A stretch of DNA of 63,752 nt, the filler included, from Hausera hauseri (taxonomy: Eukaryota): NCBI GenBank assembly GCA_046269625.1. It is 11 parts of 11 records of this genome, joined end to end, with 100 filler letters (N's around TTAATTAATTAA, not from the genome) between each part and the next. Parts side by side here need not be neighbours in the genome. Positions count along the whole stretch, not along the records: positions 26,131 to 34,343 come from JBJURY010726546.1; 10 more parts are not named here. One strand, written 5' to 3'. Under the pieces are notes generated by a model, which made no database searches, was not told the origin of the DNA, and worked only from the letters and a program-made list of their open reading frames with translations. Positions 3,501-51,629 of this stretch are shown piece by piece (positions within the stretch are counted from its first letter, which is position 1; every line of letters starts with the position of its first letter). The position numbers and the translations under genes were made by a program.

Positions 3501-4258
3501 ACCGAAAAACAATTCCATCTACGGAAAAACAGTAAAGAATCTGAAAAGGAGGCTCAATGTGCGTCTGTGCAATAGCAAAAAGTGGTTAGTCACATAGACC
3601 AGCAAGACGCAGTTCATGCGGTCAATGCACATTGTCGATAGATTGGTTGCCGTGCTTTTAAACAGGGAATAAGTCGAACTGGGCCGACAAAGTTATATAG
3701 GGCAAGTGGTATTAAATCTGAGCAAGTTGCGTGATTTGGCACGATACCGGCAAATGTTCAGCGGATGCAAGATCAATAATTGCCAGTGACACAGATAGCT
3801 TTTTCTTGGAACTGGAAAACGTCAATCGCGAACAGCTACTGCGGCAAATGACAGACGGATTACTGGACACGTACAATTACCCACAGAATCATCCATTGTA
3901 CGGCAACGCCATCACAAACAAAATCGGCTGCTTCAAGGATGAAAGTGAAGGTAGGCTTCAGTATCTGGAATGGAGATTTCTACGACAAAAATGTTATAGC
4001 TTTTAACTGAGTGTGGACCAAAAATGTGTGCAAAAGGGGTACAGTTGGCCTAGACGGAAATAAACCACGGTGATTATCGCAGTATCAATGAGGTAGGCGG
4101 AAGACAAAGGTTGTTGTGTCTCAAACGATTATCCGATCAATTGAGCACCAGTTGTATACATGACAAATACAAAAGTCGCTTTATCATGCAATGATGATAA
4201 GCGTAAGTGGGTGGGGCGAAATAAGAGTTTGGCGTACGGACATCGGCATTTGAAATAA
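555..4258 (+). pseudogene. polB: Polinton/Maverick (adintovirus-like) protein-primed family B DNA polymerase, broken by stops and frameshifts
   Basis: Motifs in canonical order across the ORF fragments: EKGSGWRI..SFIPTP; CYLC...DHDHFNGRYLGAACNSCNL (endonuclease VII-like); VIFHNF; KGIFPYD; YLKLNAYLLADVF; PGMSW; LYIDINNL*G (motif A); KPKNNSIYGKT (motif B); SDTDSF (motif C); IGCFKDE; C-terminal LAYGH. The 5' boundary is approximate. Confidence 0.93.
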
Positions 4259-4499
4259 AACACACATGAATTCGGTGCTGATGATACATAGAGATCAAAC
4301 TGACCCATTTACTGTGACAATTCATTGTGATCTGTGCTTTGTATAAATTCATGTATATTGTTCATTGTTTCCACCTTTTGTTTTATTATCATTTACTTTA
4401 TTTATATACATTTATATATTTAAGTTAATGTGATGAGAAGCAATATAAAAAACAAAATCAATAAAATTTATTAATTATAAGCTAAAATTAAAAACAAAG

Positions 4500-13368: not shown

Positions 13369-14772
13369 TTAAAACCTTGGCGGCGATCTAGCCTCGAATG
13401 TATTAAAGACGTTGATACCTCTAATTCTTTCAATGGTGCTCCTTCGTATGCTCGCCTCCGACTCCACCCAAATTTTCAATTCTTCAACTGTCCGATTTAA
13501 CCTCTTTTCGGAGGCATATCGCTCCCATAACAGTACTATGGACTCTGGGAGCTTCTCTACAAGGCTTTGGTATAAGAACCCTCCGCCTAATTTTTCCTTC
13601 CTTTTCAAATTTTGCAATCGTACTGTTATGCCATCCAACAATGCAATGAATCGGTCTAGGCCTACAATGTCTTCTTGCCTTATTGGTTTAAAACGTATTA
13701 CCTCAGTCATAAAGGCGGCATAACACCGTTGCTCTCCTCCGTAGTAGGAGTGAAGCTTTCCCATCGCGGCTTTATAACCTTCTTCTGATAAATCAAAGTT
13801 CTCAATCAGCCTTTTCGGTTCTCCATATAGGCATCTTTCTAACTGCAGCTGTTTGCATATGGTAGACATTGACGTTTTGTTTACACACGTATCGCATGTT
13901 CTTTTCCATCGATCATATTCAACGACTGCTCCACCAAATTGTGGCAGTTCCAACCTTTGTAACTTTGGCAGATTTAATTTTTCTTTCATTTCGCTGTCTA
14001 TTGCCTTTTTTGTAGAGTTGGCGACCAATTTATTATCCCGTAGACTGCGTTCATAAATTATCGTGTTGATTGTTTCATTTTGTTGATCTAACTTTTCTAT
14101 CTCATTTTCCAGTAATGCTATATTCTCTTTCTTTTTCAGTTTTTTAGCTGAGGTAGTCAAAAAACACAACTTCTCTTGGACATTTGCGAAAACCCTTTCG
14201 TAACTTTCATAAAATACTTCGTAATCGTGTTCATTCAAATTTACATCCATTAATCTCCTTCTAATCGAAGCTAGTTCATTTATAGGCCTTCGCCGTTCTG
14301 CAATGCATTCTTTAAGTGCCTCTGCAGTCAACTCGCTACCTCCTTTCAGTCGGAACATCACTTGAATTGTTGAACCACGTTTTAAATTTTCCACTTCTTC
14401 GTTGGTCCGTAACGGCTTCCCGCAGTGTAACATCATGAACTCATTTTTGATCTTCAATTTTTCCTTTATAAGTTCGATCCGATTGAGATGTGACAGGGTG
14501 TCACTTACATCAGCTATGAAGTATCGGTCATCGTAGTGTATAATTATCTGTTTTTCCATTTTTTCGACTTGCACAGCTGGAATTTTGTATGTCTTCTCTC
14601 CCTTTATCCTTCCTATTTCGTACTGCTCTAATTTGACCTTTTTCTTCTGATTCCTTGACTCTCCTTTTCCTTTATTTTCTTCTAGCGACTGTCCTTTCAC
14701 ATCCTCCGAGTATGTCCGATCTCTTTTTTTCCCACTTTCTGATTTCTGTTTCCCAATACAAATTCTTTTCAA
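13369..14772 (-). CDS. gag: BEL/Pao Gag ORF: basic linker, ubiquitin-like domain (about 14338-14560), coiled coil, DUF1759-like capsid domain
   Basis: 467-aa open frame containing SDTL...HCGKPL...NLKRGSTIQVMFRLKGG, followed by BEL Gag motifs. Confidence 0.88.
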   Translation of the reverse strand: MKRICIGKQKSESGKKRDRTYSEDVKGQSLEENKGKGESRNQKKKVKLEQYEIGRIKGEKTYKIPAVQVEKMEKQIIIHYDDRYFIADVSDTLSHLNRIELIKEKLKIKNEFMMLHCGKPLRTNEEVENLKRGSTIQVMFRLKGGSELTAEALKECIAERRRPINELASIRRRLMDVNLNEHDYEVFYESYERVFANVQEKLCFLTTSAKKLKKKENIALLENEIEKLDQQNETINTIIYERSLRDNKLVANSTKKAIDSEMKEKLNLPKLQRLELPQFGGAVVEYDRWKRTCDTCVNKTSMSTICKQLQLERCLYGEPKRLIENFDLSEEGYKAAMGKLHSYYGGEQRCYAAFMTEVIRFKPIRQEDIVGLDRFIALLDGITVRLQNLKRKEKLGGGFLYQSLVEKLPESIVLLWERYASEKRLNRTVEELKIWVESEASIRRSTIERIRGINVFNTFEARSPPRF

Positions 14773-15839
14773 TACTTTTATTTCCTTCCTTTAAATTTAT
14801 ATTTTTACGTCTGTTGCTTTCTATGTCACAACTAGACGCTTTTTTCTCTTCAATGTTACCATAATTACCGATCAAGTCTTTAAATTCCTCCAAAGGCGTC
14901 ATCGGTACTTTGCCTTCAAAGTTGTACAATTTGTACTTTCCATTCTCTATTACAACTTTTACAGGCTTGGTACGGACTCCCGCCTCAAACACACTGTGAT
15001 GAAGGAAAAGATGGCCGAAATCAAGAAGAAGGACATACAGACCTTCGAAGACAATCGCATTACGCGGTTTGTGTCTACGGATCACGTTGCAGAGCACCAA
15101 CCGCACTCTGCTACCATAAAATGGAAATTTTAAATGTGTCTGGTATAACGAATTATGCATATTTTTTCTTAAATGGATAACTAGTTTGCATCTACCATTA
15201 CCCCTTAGCACACTTCTCATTATCTCCTTTCTGAGTCCATATGAAATTTCTCCTTGGACATATTTCCCTTCAATCTCGTTTAAATTATTCTTGATCATGA
15301 AGACTTTAGATTTCATAACTATTTCATATCGTGTTTCTTCCCTTATTATTAATTCAAACCCCTTTTTGTTGGTCCCATTACCACACGGAAGATTCATGCG
15401 CCTTTTATATACAGAATTTATGATGTTGTTATGTTTACTTTGAGTTATTGATTTCCATCTTTACAACGTCTAACTCGAGTATCACCCCCGATTCCCAAAT
15501 CCTTATATCTAATATATCCCCATATGAAAAAACATTGAGGTTAAATTTTCAATTATACTCGGCCTTTGTTCTCGCGGTGCCTTTCCGCGGGGGAGTACCT
15601 CCACCTTTGAGTATTAATATCCATACAATCACTCTGATTTTGTCATACAATCCGGTACCACAGCCCCGGCTGACCTCCGGCAAACCAAAAGAACGTAAAC
15701 AAAAACAAATACTATTATTAAAATTATTTCTAACCCTTTCAAGTTTTAATATACAGCGAAAATACTTCTCCCCTTCAATGTCCTCCTCGTCAGCACAGCA
15801 ATTGGTTATTATTCTATATGCGACTACGTTTGAGTCATC

Positions 15840-16344
15840 AGGATGTTCATCGTTTTCTTTGTACGTTTCAGCTTCAGCAATCATTCTCTCGCTTTCACCC
15901 TTTGGTAATCGCCTTCTCTCGTTCACTATCATTATTTCACTCTCCTTATTCCATCCAATTCTACCAAGCAGATCATTATCTTCTATCATGATGCGCTCTC
16001 CTTTGTAAACTTGTTTGTCAATGACATTTCGTCTGGTCAACGTAATTGTGGCCCAATCAATAGTTTCAATGACCAAGTTAAAAGGAGTTACATCAAGAGA
16101 TAGATGATCCCGAACGGCTTTTGATTCATCTCCTATTAAACTTATGATCTGTATTGTTGTACTATACGCAATAGATTCGTCATAATTGATCAGTTTGTTA
16201 AATTCTTTTCCATTAAGGAGATCCAAAACAACATCATAAATGATAGTCTTGTCTAGTTCTGTGTATCTGAGAGATTGTTCAATTAGTGCTAAAGTCGTCC
16301 GAAGATGATCAATGTAAAGTTTCCCTAAACGGACTTCTATGATT
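15840..16344 (-). pseudogene. HSP70: Hsp70-derived segment at the 5' end of the BEL/Pao ORF
   Basis: IIEVRLGKLYIDHLRTTLALIEQSLRYTELDKTIIYDVVL-DLLNGKEFNKLINYDESIAY...GDESKAVRDHLSLDVTPFNLVIET...QVYKGERIMIEDNDLLG...NERRRLPKGESERMIAEAETYKENDE aligns with cytosolic Hsp70 (ITRARFEEL..DLFRGTL.PVEKALRDAKLDK..IHDIVL; FNGKELNKSINPDEAVAY; LLDVTPLSLGIET; QVYEGER.MTKDNNLLG; NDKGRLSKEDIERMV.EAEKYK.EDE). Confidence 0.88.
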
Positions 16345-17640: not shown

Positions 17641-18044
17641 CGTCATACACAGAAAGATCTGTAAATGAACAACCTACACGCTCATCTGTTGATGAACATT
17701 CTATAAGATTGTCTGCAAATGATCTGTCTGAAAGCTCCTAGATGTTTCAGGCTGGGGATTACGTTCTGGTTGCACTTAAAGTGTTGGCAGCGTGCGCATC
17801 CACTACGCCACGTCATCGTCCAGCTTGGGTAGGGTTGGAAAATACCCGCCTTCTGGTATGTCTGCTGAATCAGAATTGGATCGTTTGAAATTACTCATTG
17901 AAAAGTAAACACTAGTTGTAGAAAATTTTTATTGTAATCGAAAATACTTATTTGGGAACAAAAATTCTAAATTTAAATTACACTTTTAATATTACACTTC
18001 TAAATTAAATTTAAAATTTAAAATTGTTTCTAATTTAATTTTAG

Positions 18045-18799
18045 AATTTCTGTTCTCGATTATATCCTCACAACCATTACATGTGAAACTTGGCCTAGTG
18101 AAGAAGTTTGTCAAAGAAATGAACAAGGAGAGCGGTGGCTTTAAGTGCTTGAAGTCAAAGTTTCCCAGAATTAGTGATGCCAAGATTAAAAAAGGGATTT
18201 TTGTGGGACTTCTGATCAAGGAATTAATAAAAGATGCGCAGTTTAATACCACCTTGAATCCTGCAGAGTTTGCTGCATGGGATGAGTTCAAAGTCCTTAC
18301 GAGAGATTTTCTGGGAAACCATTGCCCAGAAAACTATGTTCAACTTGTTGACAATCTTCTCCGTGCATATCGACAACTTGGCTGCAACATGTCCCTCAAA
18401 ATTCATATTCTTCACTCACATTTTGAATTCTTCCGTCCCAATCTTGGCGATGTCAGCGACGAACACAGGGAACATTTCCAGCTGCAAATAGCTACGATGG
18501 AATTATGCTATCAGGGTAAATGGATTCCCAACATGCTCGCAGACTTCTGTTGGACACTGAAGAGGGATAAAACAATTGCATGTTATAAGAGAAAGGCACA
18601 TGCAAAACATTTCTAGTGAGGCATTTGATTACTGTGATTATATGTAATTATATCTTGTAATTATATGTATACACATCAGTTGCCAATGATAATCTAAATT
18701 CTCACTTTTCTCGAAAGCGGTGCAAAAAAGACTAATGACAGTTTTGGACTTAGCAAGATCGATTTGACATGAAACACTTCTTAAAAGAATTGTCCGGTG
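18045..18799 (+). mobile_element. 3' part of a Chapaev-like (CMC/Transib-related) DNA transposon; transposase C-terminus 18045-18616
   Basis: PLHVKLGLVKKFVK; KFPRISDAKIKKGIFVG; FLGNH; MSLKIHILHSH; VSDEHREHF; YQGKW...MLADFCW. A putative right end TGTCCGGTG at 18791-18799 gives a CAC terminus. Confidence 0.78.
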
Positions 18800-23400: not shown

Positions 23401-26130
23401 CGGTTAGAATAAGTCTCTACAATGTGATTGACTTTTAGAAAATTCTTTTCTGACAATAAAGCAGTCACCAATGGACTTTTGAATGAACTTTGTTGAAGTC
23501 AAACTGAGTCAAACTGTAACTGAGTAAGAGTAAAACGCTGGGCCTGGTTATTTTGCATTTTGTTCCGAAATTTTCTGAAAGTAAAAGGAACTGGTAATTC
23601 CGTCATATCGAATTCACGGCACTTGTTTATAATAGAAGGTAAAAGGAATTATTTACAATTAGGTGATATTCATGCTTACAATTACTCGTGCTTATTTACA
23701 AATAATATGAGGAAAATTTAGTATTTGAAAATTGTTTGAAAATGTGATATCTACAAATTGTTGAAAGACTGGAGTTTGGCTGGGAAATAAATGATAGTAT
23801 AACGGACTAGGTAACATTGGGCCGGTGTAAAGTGGACAAATTGAGATGGGTAGTTGTGGTGCCCACCGTCAATTGCGGTCCCTGGTCCATTTTGACCGGG
23901 CACAGCCGGGATGGTGTTTTCACCCAGGTTGTATCGTTGTTCGTGGCCGGTCACTTGTCTTCGTGGGGTCTTGCCGTTGGAAGGTCTTTGTGTAATTGTT
24001 GTTTCATAATCGCATGAACAGCTGGAAATAGACGTTTATTGAACACTTGGCCAAATACACAACTTTCACCGTTCTGTTGAAAAATGATTCAAATCTCACA
24101 ACAAAACGAAAATCAAACCGAAAAATTTAAATAAAAGAAAGTCCAAATTAGCAAACGTCCACACAGGTTCAACTTTAAAGTACAGCCTAAATCCTTCTGA
24201 ATAAAACTCAGGCCTTTTTCAAACACCTTGCTCAAGGTAAAACTCAAACACCTTCTCATTGTGTTAGGAGGGGAGGGGACTGGGAGGAACAGGTCTCCCC
24301 GTTCAACATGCTGCCCCCCGTGAACTCTCTCCACAACAACTGGAAGGTGAAAAAAAAAAAAGACTGCTAGACCCTTTTTAAAGCAAGTCCTGTGACTTTC
24401 CTGTGGCACCATCCCCCTGCTACCCTGAACAGGAACAAGCAGGCAAAGAGGATAAAGGAATGAATTATTTGACAGATATCAGCTTTCTAAGGGGGTAAAA
24501 CTCACATCTACTCAGCAAAACAATTACTGACACACTGTCCCATTTCTTCTAAAAAGGACGCTCCACAATACACTCATTAGACATGACACGATGATCAATA
24601 AGTCAAGTAGAAACACCTGATTGTTTTAAATGACATGTTGAAAACATGTGGATGTTAAACTGACACATACGAAACACCTGACTGTTAATACTGATGAATA
24701 AACACGGGTGTCCAACTCATTATCTATGACGTCACCTAACTATATGACACAGTGATGCACTCCCATATGCAGATAGTCTAATGTGAATCTGTTAATGATC
24801 TCTGAGATCAATTATAATTTCTCTATAAAAACTGATGTGTACATGCGTACCCGGTTATGTCCTCAGGTTTTTTGAGGGTACCTGAGACAGTCACGCTGGT
24901 CTTATGAGTGTGAAAGTAGGTTTAAAATAGTGTTTTTGAAGTTGTCAGAAAGATTCAGACATCTTCAAAAATCAGAGATATTCAAAAAAGTTCAAAAAGT
25001 ACATCTGTACCGGATCATGCCCGACAGAGATTAAGTTAAATCATTTCAAACACTAACAAAAGTAACAATCCGAAAATCCACCAGACGCACTCAAGCTTAA
25101 AATTTTTGTTCAGGTTTATTCGGTGAAAACATTCACCAACATTCACTAAACAAAGTAACCATAACCACACTCAGACTTTTAAGATATTAAAATTATAATG
25201 AGGTCTTCAACTAACTGCATATTGACTTGAATAAGCCACTGGCTCTCAAGACGTTTCAAAACCTGTGTTTATTTGACATCTCCATCGGAGCTCGATCTCG
25301 TTCCGAACCCAAACTCAGGTTTCGAATTGAATAGATCAGTTCAATTCGAACTTTTTATTTTGTCGGTAAAATCTGCATTCCATTCGGTAATATTTTGTAT
25401 TATTTTTCGGGCTTAATATTCAAGCATTGCTGTATTTTAATAAAATACATTTAGTTTATCCTGGAGTTTTGGAAATCATTTATAGCTAAAACTAGAGCTA
25501 TTTGTCAAGAAGAATATTTTCCTTTATCCAGAAGGAGGTACCTTTGCAAAAAAATTGCACAGGAATTGCAAGTGACAGATTTTAAAAATTTTGAAAGATT
25601 TGTTTTTAATCTTCTTAAATAATTTTAAATTAATCCTAGCTAAATAAAATCGCCTGCAGCCGAAGCACTAGTAAGCTACGCGACTCACACAAAAATATTC
25701 TTAAAATCAGACATTAAGAAACATATAATTCTTTCTCTTTTGCGATAAGTATTCTTGTATACATATACATCTAAACTGGAACATATAAAGGTTCTATCAA
25801 AAAGAATAGAAGCAATATTGCAAGAAGTTGTTGACATTAACGATGATCATTGATCAGACCTAATGTCAGTCTGGAAGTCTGAATCTGCTGCAAAAAAATT
25901 TTTATTAGAATCGATGTACTGATTTCATTGTTCATTGTTTTCGATGGTAACAAATTAAAAACATATTGCAATATTTGACAATGTAGTATTTCTGATTACT
26001 ATGTAAAGCAATAATTATAATCTGAAACTTNNNNNNNNNNNNNNNNNNNNNNNNNNNNNNNNNNNNNNNNNNNNTTAATTAATTAANNNNNNNNNNNNNN
26101 NNNNNNNNNNNNNNNNNNNNNNNNNNNNNN

Positions 26131-28652
26131 AATTCATCCTCAATTTGCTTCTTACTGTGCTTGACTGGTAAAGGTGCTCTATCACCTCGTAGAAATCTCG
26201 TTAGAAATTTTCTTTCGGCTTCACTTCCTATGAATAAAGGTTGGTAATCCTCATTGGATCCAATTACAAGTGTTTCACTCTCATTAAAGTTGTGCCTTAT
26301 GTTTACTAAGTCCACATATAGTATTTTCTCTATTAATTGTGGTATGGATAACAGTCTTAACTCATTCATAATTATCAACTTATGTATTTGACTCTTCATA
26401 CAGGTTGAATGTATACCACATCTATAATTCCAGGCCTTAGTTAATTCGTGCATAGGATTATACCATGGCAGAGTTAATCCGGATACGTTCATTATTTCAT
26501 CAAATATTCTTAGTCCGGAACTATAAATTCTCCTTTCGTTTTCATATCGTTCTTTAAAGGATTTACCTTCAATTAATGCTTCCTTAGCTAGCTGACATCG
26601 AAAGCTAGTAAATAGCAATAGATTATCTTTCATAGGATGAATATTGGGGTTATATTTTGATTTTTTTTGATATTGTTTAAAATATTTCTTATACATGTCA
26701 AGGTAAAATGATATGAGTTCTTTTCTTAAATGATCTGACGAACTCCATAAATAATTTGCATACTGAATACTTTGATGAATGTCCCAGTTGTTTCTTTGAC
26801 GGGATGTTATCTCATTTTGATACATTTCTGGCATACTTTCTCCGTTCATTTTAAGTCGTTTAATACGTTCTTTCCATTCCAACTGCATTATATGCGTTTG
26901 TCTAAGGTCATTAATCATTATTCTTTTGTCTGGGGCTTGATCAAGTGTAGTTACAGGGATTCTATTATTCAAAGGTAAGTGAGCTACTCGATTAGCGACG
27001 GTATATAATTCGTATTCCTCCGTTGATAATTCGTGTCGTTTTCTACGAAGCTTATTTATATGACGAAATATTGGAACGACTTCGTTAACAGTCAAATATG
27101 GGTGATCTGTTATTGATTCTACCCCTTGGGCGATTAATGCTATGATTATTTGTGTCTCTTCCGAGAGTACGTCAAAAGGAGAATAAATTTCCTCTTTTAT
27201 ATAGTTGATTATGTCTTCATTTTGAGTTATTAATTGTAAATAGTGTTGATTAAGTTTCGGATCTTTAGCATAAATAGCCAGGTTTAACTGAACTGAGGTA
27301 TTCAGATTTAACCATCCTTCATCTTGTTCAAATCCTCTAACGAAGACTTGTTGTTCTCCTTTATCTTCTTGTATTCTTTTACGTTCGTAACTCTCTATTT
27401 GCCGAGATAACGGTAGGTGTGGATCTATGGTAGAGCTTTGAGATTTGTTTACTTCTAATTGTTTAATACAGTAATTATCTACGTGATCAGTGTTTTCATG
27501 CTCAAGTGACAAGGATTTATTAATCGCTATCTCCTTTAATTGTGCTGTGGTTCGACGTTTTATTAATTTTGGTTTGATAGTTGGGACTTCTTCTATTACT
27601 GTATGTCCTTCGATCGGAGTAATGTCCTCATCACCACTTGATTGTTTGGTTGTTTTCATATGGAACATTAGATTAATAAAGATTAACAATACCAACCAAG
27701 TCAACGAACTTTCTGGTATATCTTTCGGTATCATTGGAGCGGCTTCTGCTGTTCCAAATAATATAAATGGAATAACGAGTAATATTAATATCGGGTAAGT
27801 TAATCCGATACCAATTGTATTGAACTGGTTACTGTTAACTGATATCTGTTCATTTATTTCTTTTTCTTCATTAGTATTCGAAATGCTTTCCTCAGTAGGT
27901 TCAAATTTATTCATGTCGGTGTTAATACTACTGGTTATCTGATTGTTAGGGTTATTACTTCTAACTGCTGCCCAGAAGGCATCGTTCTCTTCCTTGAAGC
28001 GTTCATCCGTGTATTCCTCCATTTTGGATAACTTTTTATTATAGTGTAACCCTAAGATTCGCTCGTCAAAAGCATTTGATCCTCGGAGACTCCTTGTCAT
28101 AACTGCTGCTGTTTCTTTATTATTACCTATCCTTTGTCTGCAAGTGTTTATTATTCTTTTTCTTTCTTCTTTAAATGGTCTAGCTATTTCGTCATTATCA
28201 GGTAGTTCAAAAAATATTATATGATACCGTATTGCATTTAACTTACCCGAAAATCCACTTGCGTTTACTGTATCAAATTTATCTATATCCATATAATCCT
28301 CCGGGGTTAAAATGGTGTTCACATTTCGTTCTAAGTAATCGTTCCATACTATCCGTGCTTCGTCTTCCTCAAAAAGTTTTATATCTTTTCGAATAAGATC
28401 ATCCTTTATGGCCATGAGTATCTAAGTCATCCAACATTTAATCGCATAAGCTTCAGACTGAGAATTAGCATTCAACTCTTCACCATAATGTTTAAACAAG
28501 TCCAGACATTGATTAGCTACCTTTGATATTCTTTTAGAAGTTCTACTTGCTATTAATTTCGTGGATAGTCTTTGAAGATAGTTAGTTACATTAGTTATAG
28601 CAAATGAGTCAGTCATATCAGTTACATTGAATGACGGTGGTCTTTTTTGCAA
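26131..28652 (-). CDS. Giant modular polyprotein, part 3 (76-aa and about 760-aa frames separated by one stop; runs off the contig edge)
   Basis: KCWMT*ILMAIKDDL...WNDYLER...GKLNAIRY is the third copy of the repeat domain. It also has a third signal/TM unit and a fourth PLFIGS motif. Confidence 0.82.
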
Positions 28653-30070
28653 AGTTGAGTGATTAGCATACGTTCTCTTCGACTTCCGATGAATAAGGGT
28701 TGATATTTATTTCTGTCTCCATATACTATACTTTCTTCATATGTTAGGTTATGCTTTTCTATTAGAAAATCGAATGATCGTAAGCAACGAGTTATTTGTA
28801 GTATTGAATGGGTTTCTAATCGGTCCTTTATTAACAATTCGTGTTTTGGATACATAGGTTCATTACCTAATATTCCCATCGTTTCGTTCCATGTTCCTAT
28901 CATAATTTTAACTGGTTGTAACCATATAGGTTGTAATTGTATTTCCCTTATAACTCGTTGTAGTAAACGAAATCCTTGGTAATACATCCTAGTTTGAAAA
29001 TCTACCCATGGGTTGAATTGCACATCGTCTATCGGAATCTTGTATGAGTTGTATAGAAGACTGGATATTAAAAGTAGTTGATAATCATAGGTTGATTTCC
29101 CAAGGTCTATTCCTGTTTCATGTCTTAATCGATTAAAATATGACTCATATAAGATCATGTACAGTTTCATGAAATTTTCTTTATCCTCGTAAGGTAGTTG
29201 ATCTATGCTACCTTGTAATAACAGACAGTTAACAATATCTCTACTCCGTTCTCTAGGTGTTTCCCCATATATGCGAAGTTTTGTATCAGGATAATCAGGA
29301 TTGAGTAGAGCGGCATATTCGGTTTTTGGTTCAATATCATCTAACCATTGTTCGTTTCTGTCGGCTATAATGCGTAGATTCTTTATAGTATTTGGAATAT
29401 TTTCCTCTTCTGAACATATTCTTGTTGAACTTACTGGAAAGTGTGGTGGTTGATATACTAATCTATATAGCACTTGGTTCATTTCTTCCCTCAGTGATGG
29501 AAGATTCGCTGGGTTTACTCTTAAACTATTTACTAATCTAAAATAGGGAATTATTTCATTAGCCATTGTATAATTATGTATTCCTTTAGGGTATAGCGTC
29601 TTCGCTATGATAGTTAGAATCGTCTTCGTCTCGTGTGTCGTTTCCTTGGGTGCCAAATTAATATCTTCTCGTATTGCTTTTATTAGCTCCGGTGCTATAC
29701 GTTTATTAGTTTTATATGGTTCCCATTCACACCCATTTTTATTTAATTCTTCCATAACTTCCTTTAGTGATTTTGGTAACTTTCTCCATTCTTCAGTGTC
29801 AACATAGTTTTTTCGTAATATTCCTTTAGGACAACTATATCTCCCTTTCTTCGAAGGAGGTTTATATGTAGAATTAATATCTTCCCAATCCTCTCTTTGA
29901 CCTGGATATGGTAATCTTTTTTCTAAGTGAAAAGAGCATTCGTGAAGTTTATTCTTTTTTCTATATTCTGTCATTATGTGTATTAGACTAGAATAGCCAT
30001 CGCCAAACTGTGTTTGTTCTTCGTGCTGTTCCTCCGGTAATCGTTGATCTAGAGAAAGGTTTAGTTGCAT
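28622..30070 (-). CDS. Giant modular polyprotein, part 2 (482 aa), probably joined to part 1 before a stop and frameshift
   Basis: Same strand and composition as part 1. It ends with YQPLFIGSRRERML, homologous to the motifs in part 1. Confidence 0.8.
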   Translation of the reverse strand: MQLNLSLDQRLPEEQHEEQTQFGDGYSSLIHIMTEYRKKNKLHECSFHLEKRLPYPGQREDWEDINSTYKPPSKKGRYSCPKGILRKNYVDTEEWRKLPKSLKEVMEELNKNGCEWEPYKTNKRIAPELIKAIREDINLAPKETTHETKTILTIIAKTLYPKGIHNYTMANEIIPYFRLVNSLRVNPANLPSLREEMNQVLYRLVYQPPHFPVSSTRICSEEENIPNTIKNLRIIADRNEQWLDDIEPKTEYAALLNPDYPDTKLRIYGETPRERSRDIVNCLLLQGSIDQLPYEDKENFMKLYMILYESYFNRLRHETGIDLGKSTYDYQLLLISSLLYNSYKIPIDDVQFNPWVDFQTRMYYQGFRLLQRVIREIQLQPIWLQPVKIMIGTWNETMGILGNEPMYPKHELLIKDRLETHSILQITRCLRSFDFLIEKHNLTYEESIVYGDRNKYQPLFIGSRRERMLITQLCKKDHRHSM

Positions 30071-30194
30071 TTCTACCGATGGTAATTTTGAAGGTACTTC
30101 CTGAGTATGGTCTTCTTTGTTCCTATCGACTTTATCTTTCGTTTCTTTGTCTTTTGCCCAAAAATTTATTGTCTGTTATTATGCGGAATGTTTT

Positions 30195-33100
30195 CTATGA
30201 CAACTCATCTTCCTGTATTTCTTGGTTACAAATATATTCTTCACGCTCCCTTTCAAAAGGTTCGGCTAATGCTTGATCGTCATTCAACATGCAAAACAAC
30301 ATCCTATATCGTAAGGCATTTAGATTGCCTGTCAATCCTTTTTCATTTATTCGTTCCAGCCGATTGATTTCAATACTATCTTCCTCTGTTAAGGGTGTAT
30401 CTTCATTTCTAAGTAGGTAACCATTCCATAATATTCGAGCTTCTTCTTTTTCCATTTCCTCTACCTTTTCTTTCGTTAATTCGTCTTTTATTGTCATTAA
30501 TACGTAAGTCAACCAACAATTAACCACGAATAGATCGGATGTTGTCTTATTTACCAATTCTGCTCCGAAATTTTTATACAGGCCAATACATTTCTTCCCT
30601 ATTTTCCTAGCTTTCTCTTGATTTATAAATTTTTCACACATTGGGGATGTTTGCCGTAGTAGCATAAACATGTCTATATTAGGTAGTTGTAGTTTTTTCT
30701 CATTTGTAGTATTAATGAAAAGAATTCGGTCTTGTGCACTACCAATAAACAGAGGTTCATACTTTCTTATATACTTATAATCGGAATGATTCGATGTAGA
30801 TGGAGTTTCTTTATACAATTCAAAATTATTATTATAGATTCGGTTTGTTTGTGGTCCACTATTTATCCTTAAAATTCTCACTAATTTGTCATAGTTCGTA
30901 CAATTTTTGAATGTTTGATGACCATAGGGAAATCGGAAAGAGGATTCCATTGCACTTACCTTAGGTTCGTCAATTATGAGAATTGTTTTATCCATATCAT
31001 CAGGTATTTCAAATCCTTGTTTACCACGGCGTCTATCCCGATTGAAATTTGGGGCGCACACTATCCTTTGTCCCCCAAAACATTTATCCCAATCGAATTT
31101 TAGAGCGCTAACGATCCTTAAGAATTCCATACTAGTCAAAATACACAATCCCTTGCTAGGTATTGGTCCGATATTTATGGGTTTTTTAGACTCCCCTTGT
31201 TCGGGTATCTTTACAAAATTATCCATCTCGATATTATTGTTTGGTTCCATTAAGTCATCATTTCCTTCAACTTCGCTATTGTCGCATAATGAGTCCTCAT
31301 TTTTCTCCATTTTTGAAGGTTCTTCACTGAGATAAGTACATGTATTTTGCTCTTCGAAAATGTCTAATTGTTGTATCTCTTTCGTCGTATCACTCAATTT
31401 CCTTTTCTTTTTATCTCGTTTTGATTGACAATTATTTATTACATCCTCTCGTTCCTTTCTATACATTTCAACCTTCTGATGGTTATCATCTAGTAGACAG
31501 AACAGTAACCGATAACGTAATGCATTTATTCTGCCTGACGTTCCTCTAGCGTTTACTTGTTCCACTTTGTCGATTTCTTCTCTATCTTCCTTAGTTAGTG
31601 ACGTATGTATATCTCTATATAGATAAATATTCCACAAAATTCGGATTTCATCTTCTTCCATTTCTTCTATTTCCTCCCTTTTTAATTCATCCTTTATTGT
31701 CATCAATGTATAGGTCAACCAACAGTTGATTATGAATGCATTAGACGTTTTTGTATTCACCAGTTCACCTCCAAAATTTTGGAATAGTCCAATACATCTT
31801 TCTCCTATTTCTTTAGCTTTTTCTTGATTTACATACTTACTGCATAATGGAGATGTTTGTTGTAACAAAGCAAGTGTATTATTAGTAGAAATTCGTGGGA
31901 TTTCTTTTCCGAAATAATAAATAAGGAATTTTCGTTCCTGCTTACTACCAATAAACAAAGGTTCGTATCTTGATAAATGGTTTAAGCATTTCGATATGAT
32001 CCACTGCTTCTCATTATCATTAGCATCATAATCAGCCGGTTCAGGTTTACTTAATTTCCAATTAATGGTATGAATATACTGGATCAGTTCTATCGGAGTA
32101 AATGTTTGGGCAGATAGCAACCTCATTTCGCATATTTCCCTTAGATCCTTTGCTAATTTATCGTAATTTATGCAGTTGTGTATTGATTGATACTCATAAG
32201 GGAACTCTAAGGGTGATTGTCTCAAACACTCCAATTGCTCTTGTATCGATGTATTAGTAGATGTACAACTAGATATTATTTCCGTATCTTCCGAAGGGAC
32301 TTGATTTGAAAATTTATCCGTTTCCTGGTTAGCAATATGGGTTCCTTCTTGTTTTTCATCATCGAGTGTACCATTCAAGGAATTTGTGACTTTTATTGGT
32401 TTTTTGCATTTGGAGAGACGTTCATAAGATTCGTCATCATTGTTACTAAAGAATTTACTCATCATCAACAACGAAAATACCCATAACAATACTGAAGTCC
32501 ATGAAGAATTAGAGCGATGGGATACAGTCTCGACTGCCTCTGTTGCACTAATCATGGAGAGCAAACATATTCCCATAAGGAATAACGTTCCCAGGGAGAA
32601 TGTGGAGTAACTCTTGATACCTGATGATTCTCGTTTTCTATTTTTTTCTTGGAGGTCTTGAATGTGCATTGCTCTTGTTTCGTTAGCTATCTCGTCCATA
32701 TATTTAATGCTATTACCCGCAAATTGTAATCGATCTATTTTCATCCACTGTTCAGGGGGAAGATTAATATCTAGAGGCTGTCCCATTCTTCTGTTCCAAA
32801 CTCGTTTAACTTCCTCTACCCCATTAATAAGTTCTCTGCCTCCTATATTTATGTTATGATGTTTAAAAATTTTTATTGCTTGACTAGCGGCTACATAATC
32901 ATGATACTGTAATTTTCCTGGGCTAGCCAGATCAGGAATCGTATAATACACTTCTTCGCAGCTTATTTTCAGGAAAAATGTGTCCAATGCGGTTGATGCA
33001 TTAAAGTCTAATTTTAGGTCTTCGCAAACTAATTTTATTATGGGTCTATATTGTTCATCTGTTATTCCGCACTTCTCGTGGTATCTGCTAAGGAAATCTC

Positions 33101-34343
33101 TTAATTCCACTACGCTATTTATAGGTCCTTTAAGTAATTGCTGTGCGTGATTTATGCGTTCTGGAGTAGCTAACAAGAAATTCTCCAGTCTGTGTCGGTT
33201 AGCTGCCTCTCTGGTCAATGGGAGTGGTGGCAAGTTTCCCCCTTTTTGTTGAGGTAATTCGAAATAATTCTGTTCAATTGGTTTGACCTCTTTACGTTGT
33301 ATCTGTTTAGTAGGGTCTATTTTCCTTAGCTTAATATCGTTATACTCAGGGAATTTTGGACTTTCTTCTGATTGATGTTTTTCAATTTCCTCTCTTAGTC
33401 GTTTAATATTTTCTTCAGCTTCTTCCAACTTCTTACTTAAGGCGATATAACTCACGGGTGGCTGCATATTGCTTGTAGTCTGCATTTCCATTAAATCGGG
33501 ATATATTGTCGTTGTTGATATAGGTCTTGGTACGTCTTGAAACGAATTTCGCGGTAGTTTCTGTGGTATACTCACCATACTATTTATCGGACTAGTGTCC
33601 ATATCAATTACCGAAGGCAAGGGTACTTGTTTTCTTGCTTGATCATTCAAGGAAGAATTATCTATTTCCTCATCATCCACTATTATACGGCTATTAAACA
33701 TATAATAAACTAATATCGACAATAACATGATTGTACTGCTCCACGCATTTGTAGCTGTTGTCATGTGCGTTGGTTGGGCGTCCGCACATCCAAATATTAT
33801 AAGCAATATTAGCGTTAACAGGGTTATTGTCGACAACTTAAAAGGACTTCCGAAAATTGTAGATGGGGTATTAATTGTAGGTATTTCCATTACTCGTGTT
33901 TGTGTTATTTTTCGTGCTAGTGTAGACTCTGTATTCTGTTCACTTAACTGCTTTAATGTAACATAATTTAATGAGGGTGGAACAGTCTCCTCTCCTGGCG
34001 CAAACCACCATTGATCATTAGGTTGAGGCTTGGTATCCTGGTAACCTTCGCAGTTGAATACAATTGATCTTCCAATAACTTTGAGTTCTGCTCCCGTTAG
34101 TTTGTATAGTACATCTAAACCAATAATAAGATCAGAATACGACTCTTGTGGGTTGGCATAACAGGTAACATCAATATAACCTATAGTTAGATCTAATTTT
34201 CCGCATGCTTCGGGTATATAATGTGTAATTCGTCTATATAATCGCAAATTTATACGAGTCAGCGGAGTAGTGGTATCAAGTTCCGCATTAACATACTTAC
34301 CGTATACTTTAACCAATATTGGTATCAACAAAGGGTAATCATT
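30195..34343 (-). CDS. Giant modular polyprotein, part 1 (>1378 aa, open from the contig edge): degenerate retropepsin, two signal/TM units, two copies of an unknown repeat domain
   Basis: An uninterrupted 4.1-kb frame in AT-rich DNA. N-terminal VKVYGKYVNAELDTTTPLTRI...DLIIGLDVL resembles a retroviral aspartyl protease fold, with DTG changed to DTT. Confidence 0.85.
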   Translation of the reverse strand, partial: NDYPLLIPILVKVYGKYVNAELDTTTPLTRINLRLYRRITHYIPEACGKLDLTIGYIDVTCYANPQESYSDLIIGLDVLYKLTGAELKVIGRSIVFNCEGYQDTKPQPNDQWWFAPGEETVPPSLNYVTLKQLSEQNTESTLARKITQTRVMEIPTINTPSTIFGSPFKLSTITLLTLILLIIFGCADAQPTHMTTATNAWSSTIMLLSILVYYMFNSRIIVDDEEIDNSSLNDQARKQVPLPSVIDMDTSPINSMVSIPQKLPRNSFQDVPRPISTTTIYPDLMEMQTTSNMQPPVSYIALSKKLEEAEENIKRLREEIEKHQSEESPKFPEYNDIKLRKIDPTKQIQRKEVKPIEQNYFELPQQKGGNLPPLPLTREAANRHRLENFLLATPERINHAQQLLKGPINSVVELRDFLSRYHEKCGITDEQYRPIIKLVCEDLKLDFNASTALDTFFLKISCEEVYYTIPDLASPGKLQYHDYVAASQAIKIFKHHNINIGGRELINGVEEVKRVWNRRMGQPLDINLPPEQWMKIDRLQFAGNSIKYMDEIANETRAMHIQDLQEKNRKRESSGIKSYSTFSLGTLFLMGICLLSMISATEAVETVSHRSNSSWTSVLLWVFSLLMMSKFFSNNDDESYERLSKCKKPIKVTNSLNGTLDDEKQEGTHIANQETDKFSNQVPSEDTEIISSCTSTNTSIQEQLECLRQSPLEFPYEYQSIHNCINYDKLAKDLREICEMRLLSAQTFTPIELIQYIHTINWKLSKPEPADYDANDNEKQWIISKCLNHLSRYEPLFIGSKQERKFLIYYFGKEIPRISTNNTLALLQQTSPLCSKYVNQEKAKEIGERCIGLFQNFGGELVNTKTSNAFIINCWLTYTLMTIKDELKREEIEEMEEDEIRILWNIYLYRDIHTSLTKEDREEIDKVEQVNARGTSGRINALRYRLLFCLLDDNHQKVEMYRKEREDVINNCQSKRDKKKRKLSDTTKEIQQLDIFEEQNTCTYLSEEPSKMEKNEDSLCDNSEVEGNDDLMEPNNNIEMDNFVKIPEQGESKKPINIGPIPSKGLCILTSMEFLRIVSALKFDWDKCFGGQRIVCAPNFNRDRRRGKQGFEIPDDMDKTILIIDEPKVSAMESSFRFPYGHQTFKNCTNYDKLVRILRINSGPQTNRIYNNNFELYKETPSTSNHSDYKYIRKYEPLFIGSAQDRILFINTTNEKKLQLPNIDMFMLLRQTSPMCEKFINQEKARKIGKKCIGLYKNFGAELVNKTTSDLFVVNCWLTYVLMTIKDELTKEKVEEMEKEEARILWNGYLLRNEDTPLTEEDSIEINRLERINEKGLTGNLNALRYRMLFCMLNDDQALAEPFEREREEYICNQEIQEDELS

Positions 34344-34443: not shown

Positions 34444-34519
34444 ATGTATGTATGTATGTATGTATGTATGTATGTATGTATGTATGTATGTATGTATGTA
34501 TGTATGTATGTATGTATGT
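34444..34519 (+). repeat. (ATGT)n microsatellite, about 19 units
   Basis: Seen directly at the contig start. Confidence 0.97.
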
Positions 34520-35289
34520 TTTATCTCTCCTCTGTGCAATATAAAAACTCAAAAGAGAGCCAATCAACAGGAAGATAACTGATCATCAGAAGAACCCCTT
34601 TGTTTCCGACCTCGCTTCTGGACACTCTATGGGGTCCTGACTCCCAGGTGTCGTCTTCCTGTTGATATTATTTGTCCTTCCACCTCATGTTAACCAGATG
34701 TCTATGTCATTTGGATTTGGTGATAGCTTGAGGACCACATTCCTCGGGCAAAATTCTAACAACGACTACCCAACGTGATAACTGCGAAAAATCTCCCGTA
34801 TCTCTCGAGACTAAAGAGTCAGACTCCGCAACCGACACTTTCCGTTTCGGTGCTCTCCGTGAAACTCAGGCAGTTTCTTTCTTAATCAGGAAATATTCGA
34901 TCTGTGGTTCGATTTGAGCCTTTTTTAACCGCCCTTTATGGTGTGTTTGAAATATCTGGTTGTTGCAGCTTCGCCCGTAAACGAAGTGTTAAAACAACTA
35001 CCTAGCATGAATCTGACATATTTGTTCACGCCTTGATAGCCACGAGAACCGGACTCAATAAAAGTGGCAAAATTGCCTGTTTTTGACGCCTGAATGAACA
35101 AGTATAGCTGATTGAATTCGACATCACCCTAATCAATGCCTTGTACCCTAACCCGCCGCACGTGGTTACTAAGTTCTTGCGGGTGTGAAAGGCCTTTGCT
35201 TGGGTGGTTAGACTGTATTTCGCTTTGCTGATCTTAACAGACAGTTTTTTTCCTCACATTCACACGTCAGTCCATGCCAAGCTGCATTT

Positions 35290-45328: not shown

Positions 45329-48300
45329 TGTTATAAAATTTCTATCCCGTTTCGGTATTCCGGTGTTAATATACCGGTTGTCTTATATAAAGATAAGTAA
45401 AGGTATCGACACCAGTGTTCCTCCTGGTGAACGAACTACAATAAGGCAAATTAAACTAACAAGCAGACCCCACAGGCTCCTTTTAAAATTTAATAATAAT
45501 CTAGGTCTAAGGAGAGAATACCTTAGACTTTATCAGAAATTGATTAAGAGTATAAGTTTGGGGTGGTAAAGTAAGCTCAATCAACCTTTAAACTTATCAA
45601 TGGTGCCTCGAGTGAGGAGGCATACTGGCATCGTATTCTTTACAAAATAAACGTAAAGTACATGCTACTATCACAACTTCACGTACTGATTCGGCAAAGT
45701 GTAGTTCCGAATCAGACGAAAATCCACAAATAAACTTAAACGAGAACCCAGAGATGTCGAATTCCGGAGTAGGCGCAAACATAGGCAGCAACCTACCAGG
45801 AACGATGGTGTTACCGATGGATAAATATGAGGCCAAACCAGATCAAGAATATGCAGAATTTATTATGCAATATGAAATGCACTCCGAAAGCTTTAACTGG
45901 ACAGATGAGCTTAGGATGAAGTGGCTCCCTTTGCACCTTAAAGGCATAGCACTAAATGCTTATACACAAATAAAAGATAATGAAGATAAAGCTGATTGGG
46001 CTAGCCTTGCTGGAGTAAATAGCTGAAATGAGGAAATACTATATAATCAGACCCAGTAACTCTTCATGGGCAGTTCCAATTGTAGTGGTACAAAAGAAAG
46101 ATAGTTCTATCAGAATGTGTGTAAATTATCGTGCTCTCAATAAAATGACAATAGATATCACCTATCCGTTACCTAGAATCGACGAGCTACTAGATAATTT
46201 AAAAGATAAAATGTTATTTACTACGCTAGATCTACCTGAAAGATTTTGACAAGTAGAAATCCAGGAAGATAAACAAAAAACAGCTTTTGTAACTGCAGAT
46301 GGACATTATGAGTTCAACTAAATGCCATTAGAAATGAAAAATTCCCCGGCAACGTTTCAAACAGCTATGGATATAATAATAATGGACGCTCCACACATAA
46401 TGTGTTATGTGGATGATGTCATAATTGCTTCAACTGGTTATAAACAGCACAAAGAACAGCTCAAAGACAAATGTTGCTTTGCTAGAACCAAAGTAGACTT
46501 TTGAGGTCATACTGTGAGTAGGGAAGGCATTATTCCTAAGATTGGAAAAACAAATAAAATACAATATTTTCCAGTCCCGAAAACAGTTAGAGCAGTCCGT
46601 AAATTTCTTGGTCTTACAGGATATTATAGAAAATGCGTTAAGGACTACCAGCAAATAACGTCTTCATCACGTTCGCTACTGCAAGAAAACTCCAAACTTG
46701 TTTGGACTCAAGAATGCCAAAAAGCATATCAACAGCTAAATGATAGCTTATTGGCTCCACCAATATTAACTTTTTCAAATATATCAAAATCATATTTCCT
46801 GGCCACAGATGCGAGTAAAATTAGAATTAAGGCTGTTTTGTCCCAAAAAGGATGTTCAAGAACAAGAACATCCAATATCGTTAGAAGGCAGGAAGTTGCG
46901 AAAACATGAAAGAAACTACTCTACAATCGAGAGAAAACTACTTACGATTGTATATGCATTGGAACAGTATGGACAGTATATGTCGGAAACCAAACCCATC
47001 ATTATTTATACCGACCATAAACCACTACAGTCGTTTAAGAACCATAAGAATCCAAGTAGTCGTGTAATGAAATGGGCAATGTTGCTACAGCCCTATAGTT
47101 TAATGTTTGAGTATAAAATAGGCAAAGCCAGTGCTAATGCCGACTACATGTCGAGAATACCTAAAGACATGGTCCAAAAAGAAGAAGAATTGGTAGATAA
47201 TCCGGGCGTTATAGCAGCCATTTGGAGTATCACGGAACAAGAAAAATCTATATTATAAAACAGCAGAACGATGAGTTTCAACGAAAAAAACAATACCAAA
47301 AGATACTAACCTCCATGCTCATCTAATAAAATTCGCAGAAAATGACGAAGTAAAAGACGGTATTATGTACTATAATTATAATGGAAAATTTGTTGTCGTG
47401 GTTCCGCAAGATGTAAAATTACTATTGACCAGCCCTTATGGAATTTTCAGCGATGGATATTCTGGGACCACTGCCAGTGACAAAAAATGGAAATAAGTAT
47501 ATGTTAGTATTTGTTGACTTATTTTCCAGATGGCCGGTCGTAGTTCCAATATCGGATCAAAAGGCCCAAACTATTGCCCAAGCGTTGTTGAAGAAATTGT
47601 GTTTAATTATAGAGCACCTACCAAATTATTAACAAATCAGGCCCCAAACTTCACAGGAAACGTAATTGCGGAAATATCGAAAATATTTCGAATATTACAG
47701 CTGAAAACTACTCCGTATCATCCACAGACTAATGGAACGGTAGAGCGGTTTAATAGAACTTTAACTAATATGCTGGCGACAATGGTTAACGAACGGCAGG
47801 ATGATTTGGATGAATATATAAAGCCCTGCTTGTTCGCCATCAGGAACACAATTCATCCGACAACAAAAGAAACACCATTTAATTTGATGTATTTTAGAGA
47901 TGCTCATATGCCGGTCGATTTAGATTTTAAGGTGCCTGTTTCCCATCTGAAAGATGTGGAATATAAAGAACTTCTAGAAAAGAAATTGGGATATGTATGG
48001 AATTTGGCTTCACGACGTATAAAATTATGCCAGAGTATAAAAATAGATACAATGAAAAAGCTAAGTCACACCGCTTTAAAGCTGGAGATAAAGTCATGTT
48101 ACATACAACTTTGAGTAAGAAAGGAAAGACTCCAAAATTGGACAGACCATATAAGGGCACATGATTCAAAAGGTGGATGAAACTAACGTTTGCCTAAATA
48201 AGAATGAACGCAATAAAACGGATCCGATAAAAGTTCACGTGAACCGATGCAAACAGGCACCGGCAGAATGAAAACTACGGAGTGAAAATCTTAATTTATC

Positions 48301-49806: not shown

Positions 49807-50782
49807 TTACCATTCATGAATAGAATTATTGTACATTCTTGATGAAGAGTTTATATAACTATTACACGATAAACTCATCTCAGCAATGCATAACTCGTAC
49901 TTGAAATAAAAGTTTTTGTCTATAAATATGTTGTTTATATTAATATGCGAACTAACTTTCTTCCATTCTACATCAAGCCCCAATATTTCTACATTCAGTC
50001 CTCTACCTTCAATCAATTCCCTTTTCACCTTCATTTTTTTAAGTGTGAAATTAACTTGTTTCAATGATGATACATTTTCAATCGGGAGGAATATCTACCT
50101 TTAATACCATCTCCCAACACAGTCTCTTTAACCCCATCAAGCATAGTACTACTCATCACATTAGTATTTTATGAGTTATACGATGTACAATTATTATTAT
50201 ATTCAGTAACAGACCAATTAAATGATCGATTCGAATCGTCATCTGATAAGATGAAATTCTCCAACAATTTCCACAAATTCAATATTTGAGCTTCCCCACA
50301 ATTCCATAAATTACTGATAACCAACAAAAAAACTTGGCCAGATACGTCAAATCCCAACCACATACCACCCTCCTGTTTACAAATTCGTTTATTTTCAACT
50401 GAATTATCTGTAATGTATTAATTTCAAAGTAACACATTCCAGTTTCACCTTCAATAAAATAAAAGACACCAGTACATAAATACCACACTATTGTACGAAC
50501 AACCAATCTCAACTTATTACAAAAAGTTTGCCCAACATTCTCAACCATGTAAACACCGCTTGTTGTTCCGATAAAGCAAAATAACACAGAAAATATCCAA
50601 TCCCACGCCCCTTTTACCCCCACAACGCAACCCGAACCGACATTCGTGGGATTGAAATAAGAATAATAACCAACGATATTATTAAAATCAATTTTGATTT
50701 TGTCAAAATACGCAGCAGGTCGACAAGTGAATAGAAAGTTCCACCATGACCGATTAGTAAGGTTACCTTTTAAGTTGCTCAT
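49807..50782 (-). pseudogene. Frameshifted ORF of unknown function downstream of the 202-aa ORF
   Basis: Three consecutive same-strand fragments (167, 64 and 85 aa) with protein-like composition. Confidence 0.45.
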
Positions 50783-51387
50783 AGGATTGAAATTAGACCT
50801 CGATAGATTTTCTTGCTCGATGTAATTTTTTTCCCATTGACTTGTTGATGTATTTCAACTGATCTTGACGCAAAACGAGAAAATATCGATGATAATTCAT
50901 CTATTTCTTTGTCGGAGAGACGATGATCGATTATCAAGTCAGTGACGATAAGCTGTCGTGCAATAAAACGTTTCCAATATTTGATAAACGATTTCACATT
51001 ATTTTCATCTGCAGACATCAACGACAGTTGACCTTTAGTATCTTGCACCATAACATCAGATATTGTATCATCCGAAACCCACGATGAATAACAAGGTAGA
51101 ATATTCGATTTCGGCAGAAGTTTCACAATTATTGTGTTTAAGATTAAATCTCTAGTGATCGGTTTCATTTTACTCGGTCTTGGATATTGTACATTTAATG
51201 TCACGTCCCCAATTTTGATTCCAGCGGGTATATTAAAGTCCATAGATTCATTTTGTATTTCTCTGCGTACCAACGCAACTTCCTCTTGATTTAATTCGTC
51301 CCCGTTCATTTGTATTAAACGATTAAAAAGTTCATCTTCTCGATTGATCAATCTCGTAATCTTCTTCATTTTCCTTAACAATGTCAT
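50779..51387 (-). CDS. Intact 202-aa ORF of unknown function, with a possible C-terminal winged-helix
   Basis: Open ATG-to-TGA frame whose stop overlaps the ATG of the next ORF (ATGA). The C-terminus has an RFX-like pattern (IKYWKRF...LSSIF...SKKIYRGL). Confidence 0.55.
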   Translation of the reverse strand: MTLLRKMKKITRLINREDELFNRLIQMNGDELNQEEVALVRREIQNESMDFNIPAGIKIGDVTLNVQYPRPSKMKPITRDLILNTIIVKLLPKSNILPCYSSWVSDDTISDVMVQDTKGQLSLMSADENNVKSFIKYWKRFIARQLIVTDLIIDHRLSDKEIDELSSIFSRFASRSVEIHQQVNGKKITSSKKIYRGLISIL

Positions 51388-51629
51388 TTTGCAATATAAA
51401 CCAAACTCAATTGTTTCTTTGCAATTTCAAATTTTTAAACCTTATTTAATTAATTCTTTTCATCGATTTATCTTTCAGATTGCTGTATATACAACATCTT
51501 TATATTTATTTTATCACATTGTGTTCATACTCAAATTAATTCATTTATTTAAAATGTACAAAACCCACGCATTGTTATTTCTCATCTTTCGTAGACAACT
51601 GCACATACGAACAAATATACTTTTTATTG

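Follow-up and report, generated by a model that had tools for sequence, protein, structure and literature searches.

What kind of genetic unit encodes, on one strand and almost without interruption, a modular protein of some 2,740 codons that is nearly absent from protein databases? The question is raised by a contig of Hausera hauseri (JBJURY010726546.1, assembly GCA_046269625.1) which occupies positions 26131-34343 of the window, the 63,752-nt stretch of eleven short, spacer-joined contigs analysed here; the interval is exactly one whole contig of 8,213 nt. The contig belongs to an abundant and diverged repeat family, of which it is a decayed copy. Its N-terminal domain is assigned by two prediction methods to the retropepsin fold, and is followed by duplicated helical modules and by cassettes resembling signal and transmembrane segments. 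Our best explanation, to which we give a probability of roughly 0.6, is that it represents the cargo-coding inner region of a giant and undescribed long terminal repeat (LTR) retroelement of the Gypsy type.

An earlier interpretation made from the DNA alone, referred to below as the sequence-only reading, had proposed the accessory region of a giant retroelement or virus. The repeat status, the retropepsin fold and the internal duplications support this proposal, whereas the class of the element, which would be set by reverse transcriptase (RT), integrase and LTRs, is unproven. New here are the abundance of the repeat family, the evidence for the retropepsin fold, the homology between the cassettes, a recurrent short motif and a helical domain, C. 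To judge from PMC6431247, giant retroelement polyproteins are documented mainly from the Burro elements. If our explanation is correct, the contig would illustrate another route to gigantism, in which orphan modules are multiplied within the element and, provided that the cassettes function as proposed below, released by a host enzyme. Within its host genome the family appears to rank among the major repeats, and it is almost unrepresented in protein databases (one match among 1.84 billion proteins).

An abundant and diverged repeat family

Contigs of four sequencing runs (X1-X4), all of which contain the sequence (word shares of 0.55, 0.33, 0.07 and 0.05), were aligned to the contig at an identity of at least 80% and assigned to 30 bins along its length, copies being counted as aligned contigs rather than as mapped genomic loci. 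In X1, 21,564 of 15,501,002 contigs align, at 80-100% identity; the corresponding figures are 3,186 of 9,551,390 for X2, 443 of 5,351,561 for X3 and 342 of 4,960,697 for X4, and all 30 bins are covered in each of the four runs. None of the data sets listed with the sequence is an RNA set, a result that has no bearing on expression. Most of the X1 contigs are less than 95% identical to the contig (2652 at 99% or above, 5170 at 95-99%, 7937 at 90-95% and 5805 below 90%). About a fifth of positions vary, with a ratio of transitions to transversions of about 4:1. So many distinct variants exclude a single-copy gene: with 21,564 diverged contigs in X1 spread over all bins, the locus is not the single-copy spliced host gene that had been named beforehand as the opposing outcome.

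Summed depth in X1 has a median of ~11,000, reaches 64,000 over the protease-like domain and 25,000-31,000 over domain C and the second cassette (T2), and falls to 2,500-4,300 in the linkers; contig depth should not be taken for copy number, and possibly X1 is itself the source sample. The depth profiles of the four organism labels are nearly proportional (log correlation 0.86-0.96, in ratios of about 1:40:530:605), and for this reason the idea that the labels represent four host species was set aside. Near position 34063, some contigs of X2 and X3 track the end of the protease-like domain and then diverge. These loose ends suggest subfamilies which have the protease in common and differ in their downstream parts.

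Reading frame and breaks

Minus-strand coding extends over 8186 of the 8213 nt, with both ends open. It is divided into four open pieces, all on the minus strand: P0001 (34343-30198, 1382 aa), P0002 (30175-28625, 517 aa), P0004 (28706-28425, 94 aa) and P0003 (28421-26133, 763 aa). The longest frame has 1382 codons; in 200 base shuffles no frame exceeded 198. These values agree with the roughly 2700 codons on one strand with open edges noted previously, and the "about four lesions" of that account correspond to three break zones comprising about four events.

Break 1 (30197-30176, minus strand) consists of a stop and, after it, a frame change; it lies in a variable linker, in a bin where coverage by other copies is low. 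Break 2, a frame change near 28650, and break 3, a stop at 28424-28422 (both minus strand), fall within the third copy of module A (A3, described below) and are therefore regarded as lesions. Length differences at break 2 also occur in some contigs of other copies (four in X1 and three in X2). Break 1 could be either a lesion or a true boundary between open reading frames (ORFs). Pairs of GT and AG dinucleotides able to bridge it exist; since the candidate acceptors are purine-rich, an intron at this point appears unlikely. Of the earlier description as one polyprotein, the near-continuous coding is retained, whereas continuity across the poorly conserved linker at break 1 is only a possibility.

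A retropepsin fold at the N-terminus

Residues 1-100 of P0001 (34044..34343, minus strand), truncated by the contig end, form a domain whose features in the ESM Atlas match clusters of the RVP, RVP_2 and gag-asp_proteas families. The ten best family-bearing matches share a family or clan. The highest score is 0.94, to be read against the finding that shuffled proteins reach 0.9 in 4-10 of 100 cases, and the best match has 157 of 256 features in common with the domain, fewer than the 170 that are typical within a family.

The second line of evidence is a two-copy (homodimer) model, which scores 0.57 against 0.00 for the best control, with a predicted local distance difference test (pLDDT) value of 84 and agreement between runs in at least 95% of contacts. 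Of solved pairs, 21 of 30 attain the mark used, as do 17 of 29 eukaryotic pairs, whereas none of 23 single chains does. The modelled interface takes in residues 21-25, with a contact between the two T24 residues. Triad loops at the interface with such a contact are the arrangement of retropepsin dimers. Since the score may reflect likeness to solved retropepsin dimers, it is evidence of fold rather than of binding or activity. From these two methods, the N-terminal domain is predicted to have a retropepsin fold. In sequence searches, Pfam and PDB gave no retropepsin match for the protease piece (one non-significant PDB row was returned), and a PDB sequence search with P0001 gave 0 matches.

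The catalytic triad position (34280-34272, minus strand) reads D-T-T instead of D-T/S-G, and no D[TS]G motif occurs in any of the four pieces. The third residue of the retropepsin triad is normally glycine; with this residue replaced, the protease is probably inactive in the contig copy. The "degenerate retropepsin" of the sequence-only reading is thus borne out in both fold and triad. More than 2,600 codons follow the domain, in which Pfam and motif searches detect neither dUTPase nor RT.

Compared with the retropepsins of Ty3/Gypsy elements (Metaviridae; Pfam RVP, RVP_2 and gag-asp_proteas), the modelled domain is similar in fold, in its two-fold dimer and in the position of the triad loops at the interface. 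It differs in its missing triad glycine, in giving no Pfam match and in the RT-free codons that follow it.

Duplicated helical modules and a recurrent motif

The remaining modules follow in the order previously proposed: after the protease-like domain come cassette T1, a coiled segment with domain C, T2, A1, A2, B1, A3, T3, B2 and the start of A4. What had been called a coiled region resolves into a coiled-coil-like segment of ~30 aa (33363..33455, minus strand), preceded by a disordered stretch rich in Ser, Thr and Pro, and domain C, a helical domain of ~190 aa (32634..33212, minus strand). The segment was recognised from sequence and composition, its coiled-coil Pfam matches being sub-threshold only. 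Domain C is supported by a database match, by an AlphaFold2 (AF2) model and by segments that it has in common with A and B.

Module A is present in four copies, all on the minus strand and each preceded by the eight-residue motif Y[EQ]PLFIGS: A1 (31419..31967) and A2 (30216..30761) with YEPLFIGS, A3 (28128..28705), broken by a frame change and a stop, with YQPLFIGS, and A4 (26131..26246), also with YQPLFIGS and truncated by the contig end (coordinates include the motif). A 27-aa element ahead of A1 (in the 32231-31974 region, minus strand) is repeated ahead of A2. A1 and A2 have 54% amino-acid identity over 175 codons and, in DNA, 68.8% over 475 nt. Their proportions of synonymous and nonsynonymous differences (pS 0.72, pN 0.26) give a dN/dS of about 0.13, so the duplicates evolved as protein: they have been under past purifying selection. 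A3 is 40-44% identical to A1 and A2. Module B is found twice on the minus strand, as B1 (28712..29689) and B2 (26253..27215), which are 23.5% identical over 353 aa (E 1e-25).

In an all-against-all comparison of 105 segment pairs (300 shuffles each), ten pairs reached z of at least 3. Domain C resembles A3 (z 6.6) and B2 (z 5.1, borderline given 105 tests), and a B profile recovers the same stretch of C with E 9e-4 in a four-sequence search. These similarities are suggestive of a single ancestral helical module from which A, B and C derive and which was copied about seven times. Growth by internal duplication, already claimed for A and B, is confirmed for their copies and extends further, to the cassettes and to the similarity of C.

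Across the four pieces, no 5-mer other than PLFIG and LFIGS is present at least three times. When A1 is aligned with A2, 9 of 10 positions agree in the motif block, against 2 of 10 and 0 of 10 in the next two blocks, and the motif lies in a part of the A model with pLDDT below 50. The motif therefore likely behaves as a linear signal, either a site for a protease of the element or a host-binding motif. That it is a site for the element's own protease is possible, though we regard it as the less probable outcome.

AF2 predicts a helical structure for A (pLDDT 57) and an all-helical one for C (pLDDT 60). Foldseek gave no match for either at E<=0.001, and the best VIA Z scores (6.0 for A and 5.2 for C) are within background for helical models; at this confidence, the models show neither a new fold nor the absence of a known one. 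The ESM Atlas gave nothing for module A. By eye, A had been likened to Bcl-2 and SAP, C to a Gag capsid, and residues 1055-1130 to an SGNH hydrolase. All three were dropped since neither Pfam nor fold searches supported them; for C as a capsid candidate, the best hit of the low-confidence model (Z 5.2, root-mean-square deviation 3.3, 74 aligned) was accompanied by no capsid among the matches listed.

Putative signal and transmembrane cassettes

Hydropathy identifies three related cassettes on the minus strand: T1 (33675..33857), T2 (32445..32609) and T3 (27657..27827). All have the same layout, in which a strong hydrophobic segment is followed by an [AT]-[DE]-A site (A-D-A in T1, T-E-A in T2 and A-E-A in T3), a loop of ~15 residues and, after another hydrophobic segment, an acidic tail. 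They are homologous to one another (T1-T2 z 6.8, T1-T3 z 5.3, T2-T3 z 3.0; 300 shuffles each). Under the -3/-1 rule for signal-peptidase sites, each cassette resembles the combination of an internal signal sequence, a signal-peptidase site and a stop-transfer helix. An alternative is an uncleaved membrane hairpin.

Structural polyproteins of flaviviruses and alphaviruses contain repeated internal signal sequences, small-X-small cleavage sites and stop-transfer helices. The resemblance would be one of functional analogy only: the presumed luminal parts of the contig protein measure ~15 aa, they include no glycoprotein ectodomain, and no homology was found.

Database relatives

A phmmer search with residues 1-1200 against 1,835,955,588 proteins gave a single match, P0005, a 95-aa ENA protein encoded on a 608-nt contig and 61% identical over residues 446-538. 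These lie in domain C, the only part with a database homologue. Searches for homologues with P0003 against longer proteins and with the module A alignment were negative (0 of 4458 and 0 of 1583 candidates). Pfam, run on the four whole pieces and 16 sub-pieces, and PHROGs gave sub-threshold matches only, and no match was obtained in a phage tblastn with P0001 or among viral structures. Modules A, B and C thus appear to be orphans, and the earlier statement that the contig holds no recognisable cargo agrees with the Pfam and PDB searches and with the fold searches of the A and C models, none of which gave a family. No related locus by which the contig ends could be extended was found in scans of viral contigs or metagenome contigs. 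No description of such an architecture was found in a literature search whose scope did not extend to Repbase, subscription journals or supplements. The accessible portions of PMC8532177, PMC11410931 and PMC6338049 hold no further structural detail.

The nature of the element

The explanation which we favour places the contig inside a giant retroelement of the Gypsy type, with RT, integrase and LTRs presumed to lie outside the sequenced part. By way of an RNA intermediate, such an element would multiply with enzymes encoded elsewhere within it. At the three cassettes, the long protein would be inserted into the membrane of the endoplasmic reticulum, and cutting of the chain by host signal peptidase at the [AT]-[DE]-A sites would yield units that carry C, A and B, are tethered to the membrane and face the cytosol. 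Granted the class of the element, the chances that such cutting occurs are about even.

Several observations weigh against this interpretation. In Pfam and motif searches the contig showed neither RT, RNase H or integrase nor Gag or a CCHC motif, as the sequence-only reading had stated for RT and integrase. No LTR was found on the contig either, all of it being internal coding sequence. The usual Gypsy order is protease and then RT, from which the contig departs. Retropepsin folds are also found in host genes such as DDI1, and the D-T-T triad and the limits given above for the ESM Atlas scores reduce the weight of the fold, as those given for contig depth do for abundance. A true ORF end at break 1 would count in the same direction. 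The signal-peptidase interpretation is based on hydropathy and the -3/-1 rule rather than on a predictor. Finally, only 17 of 40 listed variant sites are at third codon positions, which speaks against strong selection on present copies; many of the 40 sites may be private to the decayed contig copy.

The closest precedent is provided by Burro (GYPSM1), gypsy-like LTR elements of dugesiid planarians which, according to PMC6431247, exceed 30 kb, occur in thousands of copies, some of them decaying, and carry accessory ORFs. Their ORF1 of 4,873-5,140 aa, about half of it unannotated, begins with Gag and includes BIR, BCL2-like, MATH, ankyrin and SUMO-like cargo, largely captured host-like domains, in the order Gag...BCL2-Env-protease-dUTPase-RT; Env thus precedes the protease and dUTPase separates it from RT (PMC6431247). 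Cargo-laden polyproteins of more than 4,800 aa in giant gypsy-like elements therefore have a precedent there. Like Burro, the contig has a very long intronless modular polyprotein, a retropepsin, a high copy number, and stops and frameshifts. In contrast, Pfam gives no score for BIR, BCL2, MATH, ankyrin, SUMO-like domains, dUTPase or Env, the triad is D-T-T, and the cargo consists of internally duplicated orphan helical modules split by signal/transmembrane cassettes. This comparison sets the contig beside the published description of Burro.

The contig could accordingly be a diverged Burro member, representing an accessory ORF or the unannotated half of ORF1 with a second, degenerate protease. 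The copy number, decay, accessory ORFs and long unannotated regions of Burro suit this view, and the element could carry a second protease elsewhere. The protease fold is, however, not directly before dUTPase-RT: because more than 2,600 codons without either follow it, the Burro layout is not seen, and with none of the Burro cargo scoring in Pfam, the contig was not filed as Burro and the link suggested previously was not upheld. As to the host, the matches of an ABCA frame on another contig of the window (described below) point to an invertebrate that evolves fast and has few relatives among named proteins; a planarian, as the sequence-only reading took for granted, is possible. We regard membership as unlikely.

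Quite unlikely, too, is that a mobile element or endogenous virus of some other kind, such as a large DNA transposon or an integrated virus with a signalase-processed polyprotein, captured a retropepsin and carries the modules as cargo. High copy number and decay suit any transposon, repeated signal/transmembrane cassettes resemble those of RNA-virus polyproteins, and the contig carries no retroelement enzyme; set against this, its sole identifiable domain is of LTR-element or retrovirus type, and nothing matched in viral contigs, viral structures, PHROGs or phages. The least probable alternative is a pseudogenised member of a hugely expanded intronless host family of membrane-tethered repeat proteins with a retropepsin-like domain: retropepsin-like host genes exist, long host frames without introns are present in the genome (an ABCA-like one of 690 aa and an NXF-like one of 416 aa) and GT-AG pairs could span break 1, but tens of thousands of variant contigs match at 80-99% identity over the whole length, no conserved orthologue is present among 1.84 billion proteins and the purine-rich candidate acceptors are not intron-like.

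Within the favoured explanation, a giant Gypsy-type retroelement, the contig would share with Ogre (a plant LTR element) and Terminon the character of a large retroelement-like unit with extra coding capacity. In PMC6431247, both are described as large retroelements with extra ORFs of unknown function, those of Terminon containing coiled-coil and transmembrane segments. Unlike the contig modules, theirs are separate ORFs, and they belong to other hosts or another class. More tentatively, and with considerable doubt, the family could constitute a new lineage of giant LTR retroelements or endogenous viruses, defined by one serially duplicated orphan helical module, by cassettes at which host signal peptidase would cut the polyprotein into units tethered to the endoplasmic reticulum, and by an atypical retropepsin found family-wide, which would either lie more than 2,600 codons from RT or serve for dimerisation without catalysis.

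The remainder of the window

Genes of animal type and fragments of ordinary transposons are found on the remaining ten contigs of the window, which are not physically linked to 26131-34343; tblastn of the four pieces against them gave no match. Decayed LTR-element pol fragments with RT, RNase H and integrase lie on separate contigs at 46505-48111 and 60221-62089 (both plus strand), and no link could be made between the Gypsy RT/integrase fragments of the window and the contig. A further contig includes a Gag frame of BEL/Pao type (13372-14790, minus strand; DUF1759, E 1.5e-11). In frame before this Gag, at ~14326-14568, a ubiquitin-like segment ending in L-K-G-G was seen by eye and is unconfirmed, Pfam giving only DUF7325 (E 0.024). 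A degenerate Hsp70 fragment (15552-16343, minus strand; E 2e-8) lies on that contig as well, immediately upstream of its BEL/Pao-like frames. A decayed frame at 2102-2962 (plus strand) recalls Polinton-like elements in that it matches both protein-primed DNA polymerase B and endonuclease VII, with E about 1e-5 for each.

Two loci (50282-51426, minus strand, and 17990-18613, plus strand) have open frames, 190-215 codons long and with no Pfam family at cut-off, that are possibly transposon-derived, and an (ATGT)n microsatellite (34444-34520) marks the start of the next contig. At 55057-56304 (plus strand) lies an intronless, highly diverged frame for an NXF1-like nuclear export factor with LRR and NTF2 domains. 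An intronless frame of 690 codons (57199-59268, minus strand), open at the contig edge, encodes the C-terminal half of an ABCA transporter; its best three matches are 56-59% identical, followed by a mollusc protein at 41%.

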